Below are positions 4,283-21,628 of a stretch of 32,000 bases of DNA, piece after piece (position 1 is the stretch's first letter; each line of letters begins with the position of its first letter). Source of the stretch: Patescibacteria group bacterium. Lineage in GTDB: Bacteria; Patescibacteriota; UBA1384; XYA2-FULL-43-10. A model generated the notes under the pieces. That model was not told where the DNA came from. It made no database searches and saw nothing but the letters and a program-made list of their open reading frames with translations. The position numbers were made by a program, and so were the translations under genes. The stretch lies in contig JBAYVT010000004.1 in NCBI GenBank assembly GCA_041674405.1, positions 119,611 through 151,610 on the forward strand, in the 5' to 3' direction.

Positions 4283-6145
4283 TTAACGAGCCTCTGTATA
4301 AACGTGGCCAGTTCCAACAAACTCCCAAATCTTAGTAAGTGCCCCATTGTATCCGTAAAAGGTGAAGGCATTTTCTGATCCATCTCCATCAAGATCTAGA
4401 AACGCAACATTGTTATTATTGGTTGGGCACCAGTTGCCCTTACCGCTATCAAACCATCTTTCGGAAGTGAGAGTTGCGCCATCCTCGTGGAATATCCATA
4501 ATTTCATATATGAATTTCCATAATTATACACTACAGCAATTTCATCCTTACTATCACCATCGATATTTCCTGCGGAAAGCTCATTTCCAGAACTAAAGGC
4601 CCAGCTACCCTTACCGCTATCAAATTTTGAGCTTAAAACAAAAGTCGAACCAGATAGCTTAAAATTCCAGATTCTTGCTTGGGAATTTCCATAATCATAC
4701 ATTGCTGCGATTTCGGTCTTGCCGTCTCCATCAAAATCACCCGATGTCAGGTTGCCGGTTCGGCCAAATGCCCAATTCCAAATTCCGCTATCATATTTAA
4801 CTGATGGAGTTAGCGAACCATCACCATTTGCCTTAAATACCCAAACTTTCATCTGTCCCAAACCATAATCATACATTGCTGCGATTTCGGTCTTGCCGTC
4901 TCCATCAAAATCACCCGCAACAATATTGCTCATACTTGAAAATGACCAATTACCCGGTCCACTATCGAAAAGTTTTTGGGGGCTTAAATTTGAGCCGGAT
5001 TTGACATATGCCCAAATTGCAGTTTGCAGATTGCCGTAATTGTAAGGAATTGCCAATGCGGGATTGCTACCGACGGTGTAGGGCACCGACTTTCCTTTGG
5101 AACTAAAGAGCCAATTACCGGCACCAGAATCGTATTTTGGCGAAAGGGAAAGAGATTGATAAAAGTTTGCCTCTACGATCGCTCCGTCTGCCATGGTTTT
5201 TTTGCATACGCCGTTATCAATGGTATTGCATCCCGACCAATTGGCGAATTCAGATGCTGGATTATTGACTGCTGTGATAGAAATCGAAGTATCTTCTGGA
5301 ATTTGATAATTACAATTTGTGCTCTCGCAATTTGCAGTTGTTCCGCCATAAGAAATATTAACTGATCCCCCGGGAGATACGCGAATCGTAATTATACTTT
5401 CAAAATAGATTTTGTATAGCTTCCAAAAGTTATAATTTCCATTAAAAACATGGGGCGTGTATCTATAAAGCGAAGCTGTTGCCCTGTTGGCCGGAGTTAC
5501 GTTATAAGTTCCACTCCAGTCTGAAAAAGCCGTAGTTTGGCCAACTTGATAATCCGAAAATCCGTAATCTTGCGCTCGATACCAATTGTACCGGAATTGC
5601 CATGCTGCCCAGTCAACCTGTTTTGTAAACCCTAGTTTTGTAGGATCGCAACCACCCGAATCAGGACAACCGTAACCCATTGCGTGGGTAAGAGCGTAAT
5701 TTACATCTCCATACCCTCCGGAAATTAAACTCTGTTCTTTCTGGAGAGTTGCCAGGATAATGTGAGGACTGACCGTGCCTGTCGTCTGATTGATATCCGG
5801 AAAATCGGGATACCCATATGGTTTCCAGCCATTTGACCTTGAGTCATATGAATTTCCTTGGGCAGCATCCCAAATTATCTGGGCAGCAGATCTGCCATTC
5901 TCAAAATAGCCGGCAAGATATGATCCTTTCTCATTCAAGAAACGCTGAATTTCTTCAACGCTCATTGAGTCCTTGGCAATGAAAGCGTCATCCGAAATTA
6001 GATTGTTATAATAATGCCCATTTAAAAAATACGATGAAGATGTATCGGAAGCATAGGCATTTTTACTCCCGACATAAAAGATGCCTCCGATGGTAATAAG
6101 GGCCAAAAGGGCAATATTTACAAATTTTTTTCTATTGAACCACAT
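4283..6145 (-). CDS. Secreted multidomain protein: unknown N-terminal domain, InlB-B-repeat-like domain and about 5 FG-GAP/VCBS beta-propeller repeats
   Basis: The ATG at 6145 gives MWFNRKKFVNIALLALITIGGIFYVGSKNAYA, which is signal-peptide-like. The middle contains FANWSGCN..GVCKKTM..VEANF, a divergent InlB B-repeat signature. The C-terminal half repeats GDFDGDGKTEIAAMYDYG, which are FG-GAP Ca-binding loops. The track start at 6199 is probably an over-extension. Confidence 0.7.
   Translation of the reverse strand: MWFNRKKFVNIALLALITIGGIFYVGSKNAYASDTSSSYFLNGHYYNNLISDDAFIAKDSMSVEEIQRFLNEKGSYLAGYFENGRSAAQIIWDAAQGNSYDSRSNGWKPYGYPDFPDINQTTGTVSPHIILATLQKEQSLISGGYGDVNYALTHAMGYGCPDSGGCDPTKLGFTKQVDWAAWQFRYNWYRAQDYGFSDYQVGQTTAFSDWSGTYNVTPANRATASLYRYTPHVFNGNYNFWKLYKIYFESIITIRVSPGGSVNISYGGTTANCESTNCNYQIPEDTSISITAVNNPASEFANWSGCNTIDNGVCKKTMADGAIVEANFYQSLSLSPKYDSGAGNWLFSSKGKSVPYTVGSNPALAIPYNYGNLQTAIWAYVKSGSNLSPQKLFDSGPGNWSFSSMSNIVAGDFDGDGKTEIAAMYDYGLGQMKVWVFKANGDGSLTPSVKYDSGIWNWAFGRTGNLTSGDFDGDGKTEIAAMYDYGNSQARIWNFKLSGSTFVLSSKFDSGKGSWAFSSGNELSAGNIDGDSKDEIAVVYNYGNSYMKLWIFHEDGATLTSERWFDSGKGNWCPTNNNNVAFLDLDGDGSENAFTFYGYNGALTKIWEFVGTGHVYTEAR
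4689..4917. repeat. Two perfect 55-bp direct repeats (4689-4743 and 4863-4917) inside the FG-GAP gene
   Basis: The string ccataatcatacattgctgcgatttcggtcttgccgtctccatcaaaatcacccg occurs twice, 174 nt (58 codons) apart. I verified this base by base. Confidence 0.95.
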
Positions 6146-11566: not shown

Positions 11567-11606
11567 TAAACGCGAAAACGCCGCAGATCGTACTGATCCG
11601 CGGCGT
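11567..11606 (-). terminator. Intrinsic terminator of the block-A operon
   Basis: Minus strand reads ACGCCGCGGATCagtacGATCTGCGGCGT (11578-11606) followed by TTTTCGCGTTTA, that is, a GC stem plus a U-rich tail. It lies 27 nt after the lipoprotein stop. Confidence 0.7.
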
Positions 11607-11632
11607 CCTCGGTGATACCCTCCATGGCGTGT

Positions 11633-12367
11633 CTACTTCTTGGGGCTTGTCCTCGCCAAGTCCGCGTTGTAGACCCGTTCGATGGCTTGGCTGTCCGCTT
11701 CGCCGTCTCGGATGTTGATTTCCTTCGGCCAGGGCTTTATCTTCCAGTGATTGCCCTGGTAGCCGTCGGAGATGGCCAGCCAAAGGTGCTCGCCCTGGCG
11801 AATGCCCATCGGGTAGTTGGGTCCAGCCAGCGCCAGGTCCTCCCATACAGCATCCGAGAGCTTCTGCTCGACTTCCAGCTTGATGCCGTCGAGAGTTCCC
11901 GAACCGATGACCAGACTTTGCTGCCTCCCGAGATGATGTAGCACAACGGTGACTTGGCCTTCTGGATTGTTGGGGGGCGGCAGCGGAGTGCCGGGCGCTA
12001 CCCCGGGGACCGCCGTGTTGCTGACCGGAGTGATGGTGATTTCGGTGTACTGCACGCCATCACTCGAGGTGGTGCCCACGGGGTAAATCTTGACCGAAGG
12101 CACATTCCAGATCTCCATGAGCCCCTGCATCACAGGGCCAAGGTTCGTCCAGTTCGGGTCTCTGGTGGCGAATAGCGCCATTCCTTCGTTGTAGTCAAGG
12201 AGACCGCTTGCCCCGTGATGCGTGACGTCGTTCAGGTTCTCGATCTTGTGCAAGGACGATGCCGACATCGCTGTGGTAGACGCGGTGTTGCTGCCGGTAT
12301 TGGTGCAGCCGGCAATCAACAACGCTAGCAGCAGAATCACGAGCAAAGACAACGGAACGTTTCTCAC
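11633..12367 (-). CDS. Lipoprotein of unknown function (paralogue of the 12525-13322 product)
   Basis: GGGAGGG, then ATTCTT, then GTG at 12367. The N-terminus (M)RNVPLSLLVILLLALLIAGC is a signal peptide plus lipobox (L-I-A-G-C). The GC-rich third codon positions agree with this frame. Confidence 0.75.
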   Translation of the reverse strand: MRNVPLSLLVILLLALLIAGCTNTGSNTASTTAMSASSLHKIENLNDVTHHGASGLLDYNEGMALFATRDPNWTNLGPVMQGLMEIWNVPSVKIYPVGTTSSDGVQYTEITITPVSNTAVPGVAPGTPLPPPNNPEGQVTVVLHHLGRQQSLVIGSGTLDGIKLEVEQKLSDAVWEDLALAGPNYPMGIRQGEHLWLAISDGYQGNHWKIKPWPKEINIRDGEADSQAIERVYNADLARTSPKK

Positions 12368-12524
12368 AAGAATCCCTCCCAAAGTTTCAGCCCCGCCTTG
12401 GAGGCGGGCTGTATGGCTGCGGAATCAGAATATCCGAGCGGGCTGCCCCGCACCACATGAGTGGGGGACGGCACCGCTTGGTGCTAGCCTCAATGAGACT
12501 AACCAAGCACAAGTTGTAGGGTTC

Positions 12525-13322
12525 CTAGTCCGGCTGGCCCTTGGGGTCGTACCGCGGCGTCGACGGGGGTTGTGCCGCGAACTGGACCTCGGCGTGCTCA
12601 GTTGCGAGCTTGTTGCCTTTGGTATCCAGATTCGACCAGGTGATCTTGGCGTAGACCGCCTTGACACCCCAGTACGCCTTGAGGTCTCTGACGGCATCCC
12701 CGAAACCCGCAAGCTGGGGATCCTGGGAGACCCAGTCAGCAAAGCGCGTACTGAGCGTCTTGCCGTCTACGAAGCTGAATCCGCCCTGGGACAAGCTCTT
12801 GTCTGCGATCAGCGCTTGCCGATCATGGGTTGCGAGCTTGGATTCCAGGTTGGACTCGGCCACTGATGCCAGAAAGGCCCTCTCGATAGCCTCGGGGTAC
12901 GTCTCGGTCAGGCCGACCTTGACCTTCTCTGGCCACGAGCAGAGGTTCCAGGTGGGATCGCCCATCCGCCAGACGGAAACCTCGGCGAACCAGAACTGGT
13001 CACCCCTAACGATCCCAAGACCCGAGTACGCCCAGTGTTCCATGTCCTTGTTGACCTTCGCCAAGATCGACTTGTCGCCGATCGTGAGCGAAAGGCCGTC
13101 CAGCGTGGCCGGGGAATTCATGGTTTCCCTGGTGCCAAACTTGTACAGCACCAGAGTCACCGGACCATCGGGGTTGTCAGCCGGCCGAGTGCTTGCCGGC
13201 ATCTCGGGGACGACCTTGAGGGTCACTTCGGGAGCCTCAGCCTTTTCGGTCGTGCAGCCGGGCATCCAGACTACCATCATGACAGCGATCGCGGTCATGA
13301 TGAACTTCAGAATATGCTTCAC
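12525..13322 (-). CDS. Lipoprotein of unknown function (paralogue of the 11633-12367 product)
   Basis: GGAGGG, then ATTCCC, then GTG at 13322. The N-terminus (M)KHILKFIMTAIAVMMVVWMPGC is a signal peptide plus a lipobox-like M-P-G-C. It shares the block VT-VL..G..TLDG..L....GI..G..W.A.S...WP.......AIER with the downstream lipoprotein. Confidence 0.7.
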   Translation of the reverse strand: MKHILKFIMTAIAVMMVVWMPGCTTEKAEAPEVTLKVVPEMPASTRPADNPDGPVTLVLYKFGTRETMNSPATLDGLSLTIGDKSILAKVNKDMEHWAYSGLGIVRGDQFWFAEVSVWRMGDPTWNLCSWPEKVKVGLTETYPEAIERAFLASVAESNLESKLATHDRQALIADKSLSQGGFSFVDGKTLSTRFADWVSQDPQLAGFGDAVRDLKAYWGVKAVYAKITWSNLDTKGNKLATEHAEVQFAAQPPSTPRYDPKGQPD

Positions 13323-13463
13323 GGGAATCCCTCCATGGTAGTCAGTCACGCTTGGGGGCGTGCTGTTGTTGTCGGATAGCAATCTCCGAGCGGGATGGCG
13401 CCAATCGCGAAGATTGAAGCGCCGACTCCGCTTGGGCCGACCAAAGTCGGTTTGGGCTCAATT

Positions 13464-13568
13464 CTACTTGTGGCTAAGCATCATGTGGCAAATCGCTCCG
13501 ATGAAGAGGAGTAGGCCACCGGTGCCAGCAACCAGCAGGTCATTTATTACATGCATTACTGCGTCCAT
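13464..13568 (-). CDS. 34-aa hydrophobic small membrane peptide
   Basis: Not in the ORF track because it is too short. AGGAGGAG lies 7 nt upstream of the ATG at 13568. Translation is MDAVMHVINDLLVAGTGGLLLFIGAICHMMLSHK with stop TAG at 13464-13466, which gives one predicted TM helix. Confidence 0.55.
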   Translation of the reverse strand: MDAVMHVINDLLVAGTGGLLLFIGAICHMMLSHK

Positions 13569-13672
13569 GTGTGTGCTCCTCCTGTACTGTAATCATTCGA
13601 GCAGTCTCGCTCGGCACCCTTGTGGGATGCTGAGCGGGAACTGCGCAAGTGAATGCGCGTGATGGCCAAGGG

Positions 13673-14086
13673 CTAGCCCCAGCCGTCCAAAACCGGGAAA
13701 GTGTAGGTCGCGATGACCTTGCCATCCTTGTGTGCGATGGCAGTGCACATGCCAGGCGCCTGGAAGACCCAGTTCTTGCCTGTTGGGAGGATGATGGCCC
13801 CCTTGCCATCCGTCCCCTCGGTGACCGTGATCTGCGCATCGACGCCCCCCTGGGGGCTCGGCGTGCCGATCTCCCTTGAGGCGACTACGTAGAAGTCGGT
13901 AGGGACTGTGATGGCCGTCTCGGTCGCCGGGCGCCAGACGTGATCTGTGGAGGCCCAGATCTGCATCTGGATGTGATACTGGGGAGCTGTCGGCATGGGG
14001 CTGCCGCCACCGGCGCAGCCGGCGAGCACGACAGTCAGGAGTACGGCAATCACGAACCAGCAAAACGACGAAATCTGCTTCAACAT
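13673..14086 (-). CDS. Small lipoprotein of unknown function
   Basis: GGGAGGG, then TTTCAA, then ATG at 14086. The N-terminus MLKQISSFCWFVIAVLLTVVLAGCAGGG is a signal peptide plus a classical L-A-G-C lipobox. The track ORF start at 14167 is an upstream over-extension. Confidence 0.75.
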   Translation of the reverse strand: MLKQISSFCWFVIAVLLTVVLAGCAGGGSPMPTAPQYHIQMQIWASTDHVWRPATETAITVPTDFYVVASREIGTPSPQGGVDAQITVTEGTDGKGAIILPTGKNWVFQAPGMCTAIAHKDGKVIATYTFPVLDGWG

Positions 14087-14157
14087 TTGAAACCCTCCCG
14101 GGGTAGTGGTATGGCGCGCGCAAGCGCAGCGCCTATTGTTACTCAAGGTAACCGAAC

Positions 14158-14186
14158 AATATAACATAAAATATAAGAAATGTCAA
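14158..14186 (-). promoter_or_regulatory. Sigma-70-type promoter facing the block-A operon
   Basis: Minus strand reads TTGACA (14186-14181), a 17-nt spacer, then TATATT (14163-14158). It lies in AT-rich sequence just outside the GC-rich block, about 65 nt upstream of the first lipoprotein ATG. Confidence 0.6.
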
Positions 14187-16183: not shown

Positions 16184-16353
16184 CCATGGCTTACTGGTAA
16201 ATAATTTAGTATTATCGGAATAGAAAACAAAAACAGAACTACACTATTGATAGAGATTGCTTCGTTGCAAGCTCCTCGACCCAGGGGGTCCCCTTGGGGG
16301 CAATGACAAAAAGGGTTCTCAACGGGCTCGAACTAAAGGGTATTTTAAGCTAT

Positions 16354-18261
16354 ATGGCAAAGGGCAAAGAAAAGAAAAAATTACAAATTAAAATCAATTT
16401 TGATTTTTTAAAGAGTAAATATTTGCGTTATGTGGCACTAGGAATTGCTGCAATTCTTATTTTGCTTTTGATCACATTTGGTATTTATTCAATCTCGTAT
16501 GCGCATAAATCTTACAAGAATATCAAGATCGGGGATATTGCCTTGGGTGGCAAAACTGAGGGAGAAATAAAAGATATTTTACAGACGAATTCAAATCAAT
16601 TTTTGGCAAAAAATATCATTCTTTCTTATCAGGGAGACAATCCAAAAGATTATCAAGTTGCCCCTGCTGATATCGGATTGGCTTATGATGTCGATGGGAG
16701 TATGAAGAGAGTGATGGGGATCGGGCGTGATAGAGGTATTTTCCGTGACTTCTGGGAACAGCTAAAATCCGTATTTTCTGAACAAAATGTGCCAATGCTT
16801 TATAGCGTGAATGATTCAGCCCTTTCGGACAAAATTGCCGCAATTGCAAAAGAAGTTGATATACCGGAAAAAGATTATTCGATTTCGTACCAAGGTGGGG
16901 AATTTGTTCTCTCTACCGAAAGAGCGGAGGGCAAAAGGATCGATCAATTGGGATTGATCAATAATGTCAAATATCAAATTTCAAATGTCAAAAGTAATCC
17001 GATTGCATTCAACGCACAGAAATATGTGCCGCAGGTAGATGAAGTGAAGGCGCAAAAACGGCTTTCTGAGGCGCAGAATATTCTTTCTGGCGGTGATTTG
17101 GTTCTAAATTATAAAGATTTTGAATTTACCTTGGGCGGCGATGATATTGGGAAATTGATTTTATCCAAGACTGATGGAGATGATCTGAAACTATATGTGT
17201 CTTCCGAACAAGCCACGAATCAAATCAAAAACATGGCGACAACTATCAATTCCGAGCCTGTCAATGCACAATTTTCGGTTGTTGGGGGAAGCGTTACAGC
17301 TTTTGCAGTGTCGAAAGACGGATTAAAGTTGGACGAAAACCAGACCAAAGTGGATATCGAAAATGCACTACTTGGCAGGGTTTACAAAGTAGCCGAGGGA
17401 ATTGATACAAAAAAAATCAGCCTGAAAGTTGCTGTCACTAAACCGGCCGTTTCTTCGGATGATGCAGGAAAATATGGCTTAAAAGAATTGGTATCTACCG
17501 GTGTCACAACGTTTACCGGTTCGCCCTCAAATCGAATTCACAATATCAATGTGGGTGCAGCTGCTATCAATGGTGCTCTCTTGGCACCAGGAGAAACTTT
17601 CTCGACCCTAGGACGCTTAGGAAAAATTGATGCATCCACAGGTTATCTTCCGGAATTAGTAATAAAGAACGATAAGACAGTGCCGGATTATGGCGGAGGG
17701 CTGTGCCAGGTTTCAACCACCCTTTTTCGTGCAGCATTGAATTCGGGAATGGAAATAGTCGAGCGGCAGAATCACTCTTATCGCGTATCCTATTACGAAC
17801 CGCCGGTTGGGATGGACGCGACAATTTTTGATCCAGCCCCTGATTTTAAATTCAAAAATAATTACAATTCATACATTCTGATCCAAGCCCAAGTCGTCGG
17901 GACTAAGATTACTTTTCAGTTTTATGGCACAAAAGATTCAAGGATTATCTCAATTGGGACTCCGTCGGTTTACGATGTGATAAGCCCACCTACTCCTCTT
18001 GAGATACCGACAGACACTCTTAAGGTTGGTGAAAAGAAAAAAATCGACTCCGGCCATCCGGGGGCGACAGCGAGCTTTCATTATAAAGTCACCCGTGACG
18101 GAGCGATTTTACAGGAAAAAGATTTTGTATCGAAATATGTTCCTTGGCAGGAAAAATGGCTGGTTGGAACGGTTCAGCCGGAACCTGTCCCTGAGCCCGC
18201 ACCTGAACCCACTCCCGAGCCGGCTACGCCAACGGCTGATCCTGCAACTCCAACAACATAA
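16354..18261 (+). CDS. VanW-family protein with N-terminal membrane anchor and C-terminal G5-like domain plus Pro/Glu/Thr-rich tail
   Basis: The YGGGLCQVSTTLFRAALNSGMEIVERQNHSYRVSYY block is the VanW core. There is a TM helix, YVALGIAAILILLLITFGIY. The C-terminus is PEPVPEPAPEPTPEPATPT. The start is ambiguous: TTG 16294, ATG 16303 or ATG 16354. I list 16354 (MAKGKEKKK..). Confidence 0.8.
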   Translation: MAKGKEKKKLQIKINFDFLKSKYLRYVALGIAAILILLLITFGIYSISYAHKSYKNIKIGDIALGGKTEGEIKDILQTNSNQFLAKNIILSYQGDNPKDYQVAPADIGLAYDVDGSMKRVMGIGRDRGIFRDFWEQLKSVFSEQNVPMLYSVNDSALSDKIAAIAKEVDIPEKDYSISYQGGEFVLSTERAEGKRIDQLGLINNVKYQISNVKSNPIAFNAQKYVPQVDEVKAQKRLSEAQNILSGGDLVLNYKDFEFTLGGDDIGKLILSKTDGDDLKLYVSSEQATNQIKNMATTINSEPVNAQFSVVGGSVTAFAVSKDGLKLDENQTKVDIENALLGRVYKVAEGIDTKKISLKVAVTKPAVSSDDAGKYGLKELVSTGVTTFTGSPSNRIHNINVGAAAINGALLAPGETFSTLGRLGKIDASTGYLPELVIKNDKTVPDYGGGLCQVSTTLFRAALNSGMEIVERQNHSYRVSYYEPPVGMDATIFDPAPDFKFKNNYNSYILIQAQVVGTKITFQFYGTKDSRIISIGTPSVYDVISPPTPLEIPTDTLKVGEKKKIDSGHPGATASFHYKVTRDGAILQEKDFVSKYVPWQEKWLVGTVQPEPVPEPAPEPTPEPATPTADPATPTT

Positions 18262-18279
18262 ACTATATTTGTGCTCTAA

Positions 18280-18807
18280 GACGCAATTTCGGCCCAGGTG
18301 AACACACCGGGCCGAAAGGTTAACCATGCCCGAAACGGGCAGGAGAGATTGGGGGTTACCCGGGAACTCTGCTCGGCAACCGTCACCGACACCATCACCG
18401 ACAACTGGCAACGACACCGAACTCTGAGCAGTAATAGTACAGCGCTCATCAACCACAGAACCATCCGTGGTCGGGGAACGACTCTGACGCCGTGCGCGCT
18501 GACATCGGGTAACCGAAACTGGAATATCTTGACCCCGCCACTCGGCGGAGATTGGCTACGAAAGCCTGGTCGATCGAGGCATCGGTTTCACCCTTCCGGC
18601 GGAAAGCTGAACAAGCGATGCATAGCGCTATCTCCAGGCAGTCGACAGGGGAGCCACCTCCCAGCAAACAGCATACACATGCTACGCGTTTTGCGTTTGT
18701 GGTGGCGCTACGTGGGGAGAATCTCACAGCTAACATACGTACTAGCTGATCGAAACCCCTATAGGCAGTGGTTGCACCCATTTTCCATGCATGCTGCGCC
18801 TCTCTGT
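18280..18807 (-). ncRNA. Candidate large (about 530 nt) structured non-coding RNA of unrecognised class (GC-rich block B)
   Basis: GC-rich stretch between convergent and divergent CDSs. The only ORFs (179 aa plus strand, 124 aa and 115 aa minus strand) have R/C/H-rich, non-protein-like translations and no SD. It contains many local hairpins. At least two helices need G-U pairs that exist only on the minus strand: CGACCAC/GTGGTTG near 18453-18473 and CTCCGCC/GGCGGGG near 18534-18551. It is bracketed by a promoter-like site and a 9-bp GC hairpin. Confidence 0.5.
18287..18317 (-). terminator. GC-rich hairpin at the 3' end of the candidate ncRNA (could also serve the convergent VanW gene)
   Basis: TTTCGGCCC-GGTGtgttCACCt-GGGCCGAAA gives 9 + 4 bp. 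On the minus strand it is followed by TTGCGTCTT, a weak U tract. The flanks are symmetric (T-run and A-run). Confidence 0.5.
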
Positions 18808-18813
18808 ATCTGT

Positions 18814-18842
18814 AAACTATCAAACACAGCTTCCTAAGTCAA
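18814..18842 (-). promoter_or_regulatory. Putative promoter of the candidate ncRNA
   Basis: Minus strand reads TTGACT (18842-18837), a 17-nt spacer, then TAGTTT (18819-18814). The -10 is weak. Confidence 0.35.
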
Positions 18843-18961
18843 GTTTGTGTTGGATGAAAGAAAGTAATCCGTAGTCTGTGACCTGTGAAGTAAAAGAATT
18901 TTTTAAGGACTACGAAGACAGACTACAGACTAATAATTTTAGCTATGCTAAAATAAAATTG

Positions 18962-21628
18962 ATGAAAGAATTTGCCTATCATCAGTGGAGTGGTGCTGAT
19001 ATTAGGCGCCATTTTGGGGTTGATACGAAGGAGGGGCTTTCCTCGAAGGAAGCCTTATTGAGGTTGCAAAAGTACGGGGCAAATTCATTGGAGAAAGAAA
19101 AAGAGAGCTCGGTTTGGGTAATATTGGGCCGCCAATTTACTAATTTTTTTATAATTCTTTTGGTGATTGCTGCGATAATTTCTATCTTAACCGAAGGCAT
19201 GTCCTCGGGGATTATTTTTATTGTCATCATTGTCCTGAATGTTGGCATTGGCTTTTTTCAGGAGCACAAAGCCGAAAGATCATTATCACTGCTTAAAAAA
19301 TCAATCATAAGTGAGGCTAAAGTTATTCGTGATGGCAAAATTGCAACCATTGATTCGGAAAAATTGGTACCGGGCGATGTCGTTGTGGTATCAGAGGGCG
19401 ACAAGGTTCCTGCAGATTTGCGAATAATTGAAGGAAATTCTTTGCGCATGAACGAATCGGCGCTTACTGGTGAAGCAATGCTGATTTCTAAACACCCGGA
19501 AGTTTTGCCACTAGATACGATCTTGGCGGAGCGCCGAAACATGGCATATATGGGAACCTCTGCTGTTGCCGGGAGTGCAATGGGGGTTGTTGTCGGCACG
19601 GGAGAATTGACTGAAATAGGCAAAATTGCGAAATTGATTCAAACCAGCGAAGAAAAAACCCCTCTCGAGAAAAAGATTTTGTTTGTTGGGCAAATTATAT
19701 CCGGCGTAGCGATCGCAATTGCTCTGGCGGTATTTGCACTGGGCCTTATGCAGGGTTGGAATCTTTACGAACTTGTAGCATATGTGATTGCGCTGATCGT
19801 TGCTGCTGTGCCAGAATCATTGCCGACCGTCGTGACATTAACTTTGGCAATCGGCGTTATCAATATGGTGAAAAAGAATGCAATTGTCCGGCGCATGGGA
19901 GTAGTCGAAGCGCTAGGCAGTGTAAATATCATATTGACCGACAAAACGGGAACGATCACAAAAAACAACCTGGTAATTTCCAAATACGGATTTATCAAAA
20001 ATGGAGAAAGTGTCATCTATGATTCCAATTTGCCTCACTCCTCAAGTGATAAAAATCTTCTTTTGTTTGCAATGATTTGTTCGGATGTGAAAGGAAAAAA
20101 GCATGATGAAATGACGGGTGATCCGCTCGAAGTGGCAATTGCCCAAAAGCTTTTGGAAGAAAGCCACGACACGTTTGTGCGATCAAGTAAATTCGAACGA
20201 ATTACCGGCAGCCCTTTCGATTCCGGTAAAAAATACATGATGGTCGACGGCAATCTGGGCGAACAGCGCTATATCGTGATGAAGGGGGCGGTAGAGTCTA
20301 TTATTCCATTTTGCAAATTGGCAGCAGCAGACAAAAAGCTCTTACATGAGATGAATCTTGAAATGTCAGAATCAGGTATGAAAAATATTGCTGTTTGTGC
20401 CAAAAAAATTACCGGCAAGAATCTTGGAACGATGAAGAATCTTGAATTTTTAGGCGTCTTAGCATTTTCAGATGAACCGGTGCCGGAGGTAAAAGGCGCC
20501 TTTGCCGATACAATAAAGGCAGGTATCCGTCCAATTATTTTAACTGGCGATCATCCGAGTACGGCCAAATATATCTCCGAGGCAGTCGGCCTTCCGGCGA
20601 TAGACGACGAGATAATTTCTGGGCTGGAAATTTCGTCAATGTCAGACAAAGAGATTATCGATAGGCTAAAAAAAGTTAAGATATTTGCCCGTTGCACTCC
20701 CTCGGACAAAATTCGAATCGTGGGACTCTTTGAACAAGCTGGCTATACCGTTGCGGTTACTGGGGACGGGGTAAATGATGCTCCGGCCTTAAAGGCCGCC
20801 ACGGTCGGGATCGCAATGGGAATACGTGGCAATGATGTGGCAAAAGAAGCGGCAGATATTGTTCTTTCCGATGATAATTTCAGAACTATCGTCCATGCCA
20901 TAACATATGGCCGGCAGATTTATGACAATGTGAAACACGCACTCACTTTTCTTTTTGCTGGAAATTTTATTGAAATTCTTCTTATTGCGATCGCTTTTCT
21001 TGCTGCCTTACCTGAACCCCTGACAACCATCCAGATTCTTTGGATCAACTTAATAACAGATTCATTGCCGGCTATTGCGCTTTCATTTGAGAAGCCAGGC
21101 AAGAATTTGCTTGCTGAAGGACCGAGAATTGATGATAAAATTGATCTTGCGCGAGCGATGCGGTTTTCATTGTTTGTCGGTATGTTTGGCCTTTGCGTGA
21201 TGTTTCTGCTCTATCTCTCGGGCTTGCACCATTCAATTGCGCATGCGCGTACTTTGGTTTTTGCCTCTGTTGTTCTTTCGCAAATGGCGCTGGTTATGTC
21301 GGTTAGATCGAAGAAGAGGGTCTGGGAGGACTTCCGAGGGTTTTTTGAAAATGCATATTTGAATGCAGCAGTTTTGATCTCGATATTCATACAAATAATC
21401 GCTTTTGTCCCATACACTAGGTCATTCTTCGGCACGGCTCCCCTCGGATTTACGGATTGGCTTTCTGTCATCGCAACAATCATCATAGTGTTTTTCGGCT
21501 CGGAAATTATCCGTCACTATCAAGATCAGCACTATTTAAAATTGAAGCTTAGGAATAAAAAAATCGCGCTTGTCGACGAAAAAACAGGCAAAATGATAGC
21601 CGGGACATCATTAGTTCGTAGTAAGTAG
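18962..21628 (+). CDS. P-type cation-transporting ATPase, type IIA (Ca2+-ATPase-like)
   Basis: Motifs seen: DKTGTITKN (phosphorylation site), TGDGVNDAPALK (hinge), VPESLPTVVTLTLA (M4 PE-x-LP), NLITDSLPAIALSFEKP (M6 N..TD) and an N-terminal EGLSSKEALLRLQKYGANSL cation-ATPase-N domain. The track start is GTG 18878. I prefer ATG 18962 because typical family members begin about 20 aa before the GLS motif. Neither start has a clear SD. Confidence 0.85.
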   Translation: MKEFAYHQWSGADIRRHFGVDTKEGLSSKEALLRLQKYGANSLEKEKESSVWVILGRQFTNFFIILLVIAAIISILTEGMSSGIIFIVIIVLNVGIGFFQEHKAERSLSLLKKSIISEAKVIRDGKIATIDSEKLVPGDVVVVSEGDKVPADLRIIEGNSLRMNESALTGEAMLISKHPEVLPLDTILAERRNMAYMGTSAVAGSAMGVVVGTGELTEIGKIAKLIQTSEEKTPLEKKILFVGQIISGVAIAIALAVFALGLMQGWNLYELVAYVIALIVAAVPESLPTVVTLTLAIGVINMVKKNAIVRRMGVVEALGSVNIILTDKTGTITKNNLVISKYGFIKNGESVIYDSNLPHSSSDKNLLLFAMICSDVKGKKHDEMTGDPLEVAIAQKLLEESHDTFVRSSKFERITGSPFDSGKKYMMVDGNLGEQRYIVMKGAVESIIPFCKLAAADKKLLHEMNLEMSESGMKNIAVCAKKITGKNLGTMKNLEFLGVLAFSDEPVPEVKGAFADTIKAGIRPIILTGDHPSTAKYISEAVGLPAIDDEIISGLEISSMSDKEIIDRLKKVKIFARCTPSDKIRIVGLFEQAGYTVAVTGDGVNDAPALKAATVGIAMGIRGNDVAKEAADIVLSDDNFRTIVHAITYGRQIYDNVKHALTFLFAGNFIEILLIAIAFLAALPEPLTTIQILWINLITDSLPAIALSFEKPGKNLLAEGPRIDDKIDLARAMRFSLFVGMFGLCVMFLLYLSGLHHSIAHARTLVFASVVLSQMALVMSVRSKKRVWEDFRGFFENAYLNAAVLISIFIQIIAFVPYTRSFFGTAPLGFTDWLSVIATIIIVFFGSEIIRHYQDQHYLKLKLRNKKIALVDEKTGKMIAGTSLVRSK

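Follow-up and report, generated by a model that had tools for sequence, protein, structure and literature searches.

A candidate orphan structured RNA gene convergent with VanW in a Patescibacteria genome

A GC-rich block in the genome of a Patescibacteria group bacterium is a credible candidate for an orphan structured RNA gene, as yet unproven, and can be assigned to no family. The block (~18280–18840, ~540 nucleotides (nt)) lies between a VanW-family gene and a P-type cation ATPase gene in a 32-kilobase (kb) stretch of contig JBAYVT010000004.1, which we call the window throughout. With a probability of about 0.6, we read it as a stand-alone minus-strand gene for a heavily base-paired non-coding RNA of ~530 nt. 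The status of the block rests on its composition, the absence of a coding signal, strand-asymmetric stability and position. It is absent from Rfam, and positional analogues with covariation occur in related loci. Transcription, both ends of the candidate RNA and all of its function we infer. Related loci are numbered L001 onwards and come from a comparison set of ~170 VanW loci from genomes and metagenomes.

A GC-rich block with a strong predicted fold and no coding signal

The block stands out from its surroundings by composition, as the sequence-only reading that preceded this work had pointed out. GC content is 0.54–0.595 in 200-nt windows across 18200–18800, against 0.31–0.46 in the flanking genes (flanks ~42% overall). 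The same sequence recurs base for base in two further assemblies with separate sample accessions (ENA ERZ27247358 and Logan SRR6484325), and a 2.5-kb JGI contig also encodes the block's 179-amino-acid (aa) open reading frame (ORF), so the block is no assembly artefact or chimera. A search for further copies elsewhere in the window, made as a test for mobile-element origin, found none.

The block lacks the statistical marks of a gene. The long ORFs that had been dismissed as non-coding from their letters are present, and they have no family, homologue, periodicity or Shine-Dalgarno sequence. Period-3 signal is 1.4–1.7 in the block and 6.3–39 in the genes of the window, 540-nt gene pieces and GC-rich lipoprotein genes included. 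GC by codon position is flat at 0.52/0.55/0.59, compared with 0.57/0.44/0.77 in those lipoprotein genes. Together these two measures speak against both a present gene and the recent decay of a GC-rich one. Searches of the block's ORFs against Pfam, NCBIfam and PHROGs returned no match, and six-frame tblastn of the blocks against all loci returned no protein-level similarity. Among 1.84 billion representative proteins, the 179-aa plus-strand ORF recovered itself and one weak match, P0122, whose E-value of 3.6e-4 is spread over 7 short stretches and which we judged not meaningful. A 124-aa minus-strand ORF had no relative in large protein collections.

Folding energies favour the minus strand. 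The comparison with shuffled controls that the sequence-only reading had proposed gave a z-score (z) of −3.59 for a 543-nt minus-strand transcript, with 0 of 100 dinucleotide shuffles as stable, and only −1.34 for the plus strand. Controls taken from three GC-rich lipoprotein genes and an ATPase segment ranged from −2.23 to +0.14, the GC-rich genes by themselves lying at about −0.7 to −2.2. All of the local stems previously picked out by eye were recovered, most with pairing probabilities of 0.74–1.0. Some had been said to need G-U pairs available on the minus strand only; these wobbles are indeed there and become A-C mismatches on the plus strand. The predicted minus-strand features and the two flanking plus-strand genes are as follows.

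18837–18842, minus strand: −35 box TTGACT, 5 of 6 consensus bases; TTGACA stands at the equivalent place in related loci
18814–18822, minus strand: extended −10 element TGaTAGTTT, with the hexamer TAGTTT at 18814–18819, 17 nt past the −35 box, and TG one base upstream of the hexamer
18271–18807, minus strand: predicted transcript body of ~535 nt, drawn from the GC island, the minus-strand z and the lack of periodicity; both ends predicted and unmapped
18795–18802, minus strand: 5' strand of a predicted end-joining helix, GAGGCGCA, pairing with 18278–18285 at a mean probability of 0.93
18278–18285, minus strand: 3' strand of the same helix in the predicted fold, UGCGUCUU; the tail motif TTGCGTCT also occurs in L018
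18727–18748, minus strand: hairpin CAGCUAG-8 nt-UUAGCUG, pairing probability 0.96, with a wobble possible on the minus strand alone
18592–18606, minus strand: hairpin CUUUCC-GCC-GGAAGG, pairing probability 1.00
18533–18550, minus strand: hairpin CUCCGCC-GAGU-GGCGGGG, pairing probability 0.74, with a U-G wobble possible on the minus strand alone
18450–18473, minus strand: 10-base-pair (bp) hairpin CGACCACGGA-UGGU-UCUGUGGUUG, pairing probability 0.99
18365–18486, minus strand: segment with three CAGAGUY copies (18365, 18420, 18480) and a short repeat of 12–13 nt period at 18374–18418
18327–18341, minus strand: penultimate hairpin UGCCCG-UUU-CGGGCA, pairing probability 0.95; relatives have a comparable GC-rich pre-terminator hairpin
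18287–18317, minus strand: terminal 9+4 bp hairpin adjoining the VanW stop codon, pairing probability 0.95–0.96
16294–18261, plus strand: VanW-family gene, convergent with the candidate RNA; identified by Pfam PG_binding_4 and VanW domains and by homologues
18962–21628, plus strand: P-type cation ATPase gene, divergent from the candidate RNA promoter; identified by Pfam domains

Several finer structural ideas fared less well. The CAGAGTY element said to recur three times does have three minus-strand copies within 122 nt, but the window as a whole holds 8 where 4.1 are expected, which is only mildly unusual. Pairing between the ends of the candidate RNA is only mildly above shuffles, and a 5'-3' closing helix as an architecture common to all blocks was rejected, being no better than shuffles. 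Unpaired regions were enriched neither in GGA, as a CsrA sponge might be, nor in UCC/CCUCC, as an anti-Shine-Dalgarno RNA might be.

The block belongs to no RNA family in Rfam 15. A search of the whole 32-kb window with its 4227 families gave 0 matches at gathering thresholds, and at E≤10 the region 18100–19000 gave only chance-level matches to the eukaryotic families mir-602, ceN44 and SNORA70 (16–19 bits). Rfam 15 includes OLE, ROOL, GOLLD, HEARO, raiA, RNase P, tmRNA, SRP and 6S, as well as group I and II introns and the M-box, yybP-ykoY and cobalamin riboswitches. The covariance search thus agrees with the sequence-only reading, which had been able to place the block in no known class: nothing beyond chance appeared at gathering scores or at E≤10. 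Six related blocks searched at gathering and E-value thresholds were negative too. ARAGORN found no tRNA or tmRNA in the window, and in 12 related loci nothing but a single tRNA-Glu. In one relative, L003:2401–2536 (plus strand), a sub-threshold match to PrrB/RsmZ appeared (21.7 bits against a gathering threshold of 44, E 0.009); the match is antisense to the proposed RNA and probably due to chance.

The surrounding genes run in the order H+-PPase, DUF3006, VanW (plus strand), the block, P-type ATPase (plus), acetyltransferase (minus) and pyrG (minus). The VanW protein is 100% identical to the NCBI entry 'MAG: VanW family protein [Patescibacteria group bacterium]' (MAG, metagenome-assembled genome), and the nearest named relatives by VanW are Candidatus Berkelbacteria MAGs. 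Scanning genome collections with only the ATPase as query gave no relative. In the ORF list the ATPase starts at GTG 18878; relatives' alignments begin only at residue 18–53, mostly ~25–34, so the true start is probably ATG 18962. With that start, ~120 nt of AT-rich sequence would be available to divergent promoters.

Blocks in the same slot of related genomes

The slot after VanW is empty in some relatives and filled in others. The VanW–ATPase gap is <110 nt in ~27 loci, and several of these short gaps (L096, L027, L037, L023, L024, L033, L114) contain a GGAGG-type Shine-Dalgarno sequence and no hairpin; such pairs look like one operon. In the four closest lineages (the window, L003, L018/L166 and L004) the gap is 617–780 nt at 49–54% GC. 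VanW identity to the window is 77% for L003, 58% for L018/L166 and 58% for L004. GC-rich, ORF-free blocks in the same slot and on the same strand as the window's block are found in L003, L004, L018, L166, L005, L008, L010, L168, L169, L017, L013 and L029.

These blocks share a layout. At the far end stands a minus-strand TTGACA-17-TAnnnT promoter, near-consensus TTGACA-17-TAATAT in several (L003, L004, L018), and a hairpin adjoins the VanW stop codon, followed by a U-rich tail in L003, L005, L008, L010 and L168. The sister clade of L005, L008, L010, L168, L169 and L017 has blocks of 330–470 nt with like organisation and without the ATPase. Smaller versions stand in L013 and L029; in L003 and L013 there are two units in tandem. 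When ten relatives' blocks were folded, the minus strand had the more negative z in 10 of 10, from −3.2 to −6.9.

Two further elements were seen beside the large blocks. A second small unit of ~100–130 nt lies between the large RNA and VanW at L003:2190–2350 and L013 ~5852–5975, both on the minus strand, each with its own TTGACA-17-TAnnnT promoter and terminator. At the places below, tandem repeats of ~8-nt period (GGAAAGTT / GTAGAAAG / GGTGGAAG) stand between VanW's stop codon and the terminator of the RNA.

L004:1824–1900: ~8-nt tandem repeats
L018:5894–5945: ~8-nt tandem repeats
L167:4879–4950: ~8-nt tandem repeats

Sequence comparison indicates clearly that some of the relatives' blocks are RNAs under selection. 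We defined an L005 type comprising L005, L008, L010 and L168 plus the 3' part of L169 and L017. In it, the helix enclosing the 5' domain stays paired through double changes (GCGUGGG/CCCAUGC, ACGCGGG/CCCGCGU, GUGUUGGU/ACCAACAC, GUGUUGGC/GCCAACAC), one inner A-U pair becomes G-C, and the conserved core reads CUUGGGAUCC...GUCGACUAGCGAUCAGG...UUGCGCGG-loop-CCGCGCAUAUCC. The blocks of this type carry single-base indels, which rules out coding. The L018 type (L004, L018, L166) has a long-range helix with two compensatory pairs, and similarity between L018 and L166 is equal across the six reading frames.

By the same comparisons, the relatives' RNAs are mosaic, one module being strongly constrained and other domains exchanged wholesale. 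In its 3' half (213 nt, L018:6154–6366 against L166:5022–5234) the RNA reaches 94.8% identity, where VanW and ATPase DNA is ~82% identical; the 5' 250 nt of the same RNAs are unalignable, with nothing in common. Between L008:3527–4971 and L010:5912–6300, 97.6% identity over 3.7 kb ends inside the RNA gene, and the 5' RNA domains are unrelated. L169 and the L005 group share only the 3' 110 nt although their VanW proteins are 79–83% identical. This pattern of constraint, covariation and domain swapping belongs to the relatives only, not to the window's block. An ORF for an insertion-sequence-type rve/DDE transposase lies directly upstream of the RNA promoter in L008 (3877–4971, minus strand).

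A smaller RNA occupies a comparable position in more distant loci. In ~45 loci, mostly Parcubacteria-like, an unannotated hairpin RNA of ~130 nt is convergent with VanW, with a strong promoter, an invariant internal loop CACGACAAGCAUGGGGA and no Rfam family match. Its basal stem (~22 bp) shows strong covariation, with 85% of cells paired and double changes at 16 of 22 pairs. The stem scores 0.398 for covariation; shuffles give 0.181, with 0 of 500 matching the observed value, and slid-partner controls fall far below it. Apical insertions up to ~130 nt are tolerated, and versions of ~350 nt occur in L060, L069, L142, L125 and L065.

L143:3801–3925, minus strand: example of the ~130-nt hairpin RNA
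L075:5887–6012, minus strand: a second example; the RNA also occurs in L130, L135, L150, L163 and ~40 others

The ~130-nt RNA resembles the window's block in being convergent with VanW, closed by a basal helix and tolerant of large insertions. Its loop AAGCAUGGGGA also recalls the window's 5' GCAUGCAUGGAAAA, a likeness of only 6–7 nt that may be chance. The window lacks the invariant loop CACGACAAGCAUGGGGA; its partial resemblance comes down to GCAUGG(A/G)(A/G)A beside the 8-bp end helix. Orthology by synteny was rejected: no pyrG lies beside those RNAs, and the far side differs. The Berkelbacteria blocks may be expanded descendants of the ~130-nt RNA, with a resemblance of only 6–7 nt and a differing synteny.

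Weighing the candidate RNA gene and its alternatives

Several results weigh against a structured RNA gene in the window. The sequence-only reading had named a lack of homologues as grounds for giving it up, and in part this is what we found: when the block was compared with every locus of the set by nhmmer, blastn and k-mer counts, only the identical copies L001 and L002 came back. The block aligns to no other sequence, not even that of L003 with its 77% identical VanW, and since no relative aligns, it has no covariation support. R1, the covariance model built on the module of the L018 type (131 positions with the long-range helix), found only its three training sequences (82–155 bits) and nothing in the window at E≤10. 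Neither nhmmer searches with each L005-type member nor an iterated nhmmer profile of the Parcubacteria-type RNA, which matched 51 places, found a match in the window. The candidate RNA is G/U-rich, and the other blocks are C-rich. Of the proposed TTGACT-17-TAGTTT promoter, both boxes and the spacer are present, but the −10 hexamer agrees with the consensus at only 3 of 6 bases, so the promoter is passed over by a simple scan. The 9+4 bp hairpin proposed as the RNA's end is strong and real, but it is not a canonical terminator; it has no U-tract behind it, and a scan found no canonical terminator. With flanks included (616 nt, 20 shuffles only) the strands were alike, at z of −2.3 and −2.5, which makes the folding evidence moderate rather than overwhelming. 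Finally, a plus-strand stop-free run of 178 codons (18298–18837) fills the whole VanW–ATPase gap, a length reached by 0.7% of shuffles.

Some short pieces are nevertheless held in common with relatives. The 3' tail reads AAATTGCGTCTT here and GTCTTGCGTCT there, and a hairpin stands just before the terminator. The window's 5' GCATGCATGGA also occurs at the 5' end of L169, with GCATGC at that position in L005 and L004. These pieces fit common descent of the transcription unit and are no proof of it. Wider searches added nothing: blastn of the block against phage and plasmid collections found nothing, and scans of viral contigs with two motifs of the relatives' RNAs gave three chance 17-mers for one, without surrounding similarity, and none for the other.

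The block could instead be a non-functional, perhaps transcribed remnant of horizontally acquired GC-rich DNA in a permissive slot, for example a decayed lipoprotein gene of the L014/L020 type, a reading we consider unlikely. Its main support is that slot content varies between genomes. Between convergent VanW and pyrG there is nothing (89–170 nt) in L032 and L100, small membrane-protein genes in L009, L012 and L169, and elsewhere the ATPase or RNAs. In L014 and L020 the slot is taken by GC-rich lipoprotein genes on the minus strand whose promoter, terminator and tail are similar, another 60% GC island in the window encodes lipoproteins, and the blocks of the window and L003 have nothing in common despite 77% VanW identity. 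Decay of such a gene sits poorly with the block itself, which in no frame resembles any of 170 loci at the protein level and has no residual periodicity and no excess of GC at third codon positions (GC3). It also shows a strand-asymmetric excess stability that is absent in lipoprotein genes. In a genome of 42% GC, DNA free of constraint would be expected to drift AT-ward, yet high GC has been retained, and the analogous blocks of sister lineages are constrained.

The other GC-rich island in the window spans 2.5 kb (11600–14170) at ~60% GC in a 42–44% GC genome and holds three minus-strand ORFs with lipoprotein signal peptides. These are possibly horizontally acquired surface proteins.

11633–12382, minus strand: lipoprotein-type ORF
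12525–13382, minus strand: lipoprotein-type ORF
13673–14167, minus strand: lipoprotein-type ORF; GC3 across the three is 0.76–0.79, with no Pfam family on record

Coding and leader explanations fare worse. An orphan 179-aa plus-strand protein (18298–18837) in a VanW-ORF-ATPase operon would account for the stop-free run across the gap (p ~0.007 by shuffling), and one public annotation does call this ORF a hypothetical protein (P0121). We give it very little credence: the start would be GTG without a Shine-Dalgarno sequence, periodicity is absent, and 1.84 billion representatives and the family collections hold no homologue. Its translation is Arg/His/Trp/Cys-rich nonsense, and L003, L004 and L018 have no such ORF. 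A value of 0.007 is unremarkable given 28 strand-by-locus tests; for this reason, and since all coding measures are negative, we treat the 178-codon run as chance. The sequence-only reading had itself offered a long plus-strand 5' leader or riboswitch of the ATPase mRNA as its alternative. Metal-sensing leaders are common before cation ATPase genes, and the block lies directly upstream of one on the same strand. This too is highly improbable, because the ATPase follows VanW directly in the ~27 block-free relatives, with its own Shine-Dalgarno sequence seen in several, and the plus-strand z of −1.34 is no better than controls. No riboswitch or leader family appears even at E≤10, the wobbles of several stems become A-C mismatches on the plus strand, and L005-type blocks exist without an adjoining ATPase.

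A minus-strand mRNA of the type I toxin kind deserves mention as well, since a 62-codon ORF (18464–18276) with an N-terminal hydrophobic helix, MVLWLMSAVLLLL, has its start codon in the strongest hairpin, the AUG lying at the tip of a stem with pairing probability 0.99. In hok-type mRNAs the 5' and 3' ends pair, as they are predicted to do here, and the element is fast-evolving and lineage-specific. Against these likenesses stand the lack of a Shine-Dalgarno sequence, an ORF length expected by chance and the ease with which hydrophobic codons arise by chance in G+U-rich RNA. Relatives have no equivalent conserved ORF (the ATG of L005, for instance, is absent in L008), and no promoter for an antitoxin RNA was identified. 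We regard a toxin mRNA as very improbable.

Proposed role and comparison with known systems

The candidate structured RNA would be transcribed away from the ATPase gene, starting at the sigma-70-type promoter TTGACT-17-TGaTAGTTT and extending as far as the hairpins next to VanW's stop codon. Comparison with the short-gap loci suggests that, in the window's clade, a minus-strand unit was inserted between a formerly contiguous VanW and ATPase. In cis, convergent transcription and GC-rich hairpins would probably block read-through from VanW, and the ATPase would therefore rely on its own promoter in the AT-rich 120 nt upstream. In trans, the RNA would most likely act through its fold, as a protein-binding or regulatory scaffold; no candidate partner gene or target was identified.

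Such a unit would be a notable investment for its host. Patescibacteria genomes are tiny and have little spare DNA, so a 0.5-kb folded non-coding unit would be costly and presumably useful. Structured RNAs >300 nt other than ribosomal RNA, RNase P and tmRNA are rare in bacteria, and each new class has led to new biology. Literature searches found no report of a large RNA for Patescibacteria or of RNAs of this type.

More speculatively, and in our view improbably, Berkelbacteria-like Patescibacteria may have a class of RNAs not described before, large, modular and quick to diversify, of which the block would be one lineage-specific form, possibly derived from the ~130-nt hairpin RNA. Such a class would combine a constrained module with GC-rich folded domains that can be swapped wholesale, in a slot convergent with VanW. 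If this holds, a scaffold that is kept while its domains are traded would suggest, for these episymbionts, that the RNAs function in conflict or in host interaction. The comparative picture is unusual and outweighs the weakly supported single locus: several unannotated RNA families are convergent with VanW, and in some of them one part is more conserved than the neighbouring genes while others are exchanged between near-identical strains. The window's RNA is a lead for transcriptomics, not an established new class.

Among known systems, type I toxin mRNAs (hok/fst-like) resemble the block as folded, lineage-specific transcripts of a few hundred nt with end pairing and a small hydrophobic ORF. 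They differ in that the block has no Shine-Dalgarno sequence and no conserved ORF, and no antisense partner was found.

OLE, ROOL, GOLLD and raiA offer a parallel in form: a stand-alone gene of ~0.5 kb with many helices, GC-rich relative to the genome and without a function when first found. Many species share the sequence and structure of those families; the block has no alignable homologue among 172 loci or in phage or plasmid records. The hint at an OLE/ROOL/GOLLD-like class in the sequence-only reading finds no support: the analogous blocks are fast-evolving and mosaic, the opposite of those families. OLE, ROOL and GOLLD fold into elaborate homo-oligomers (PMC12286853), and the block shows no evidence of multimer motifs.

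The L018- and L005-type RNAs are counterparts from related genomes. L005-type blocks end in canonical hairpin-plus-U terminators, a feature in which they differ from the window's hairpin with no U-run. Both types share with the window's block the slot after VanW, the strand, the type of the proposed promoter, the GC-rich pre-terminator hairpin and minus-strand stability, at a size of 330–590 nt. The likeness extends to both ends of the unit, with a 3' tail reading TTGCGTCT / TCTTGCGTCT and a 5' GCATGC(ATGG) motif that recurs in L169, L005 and L004.

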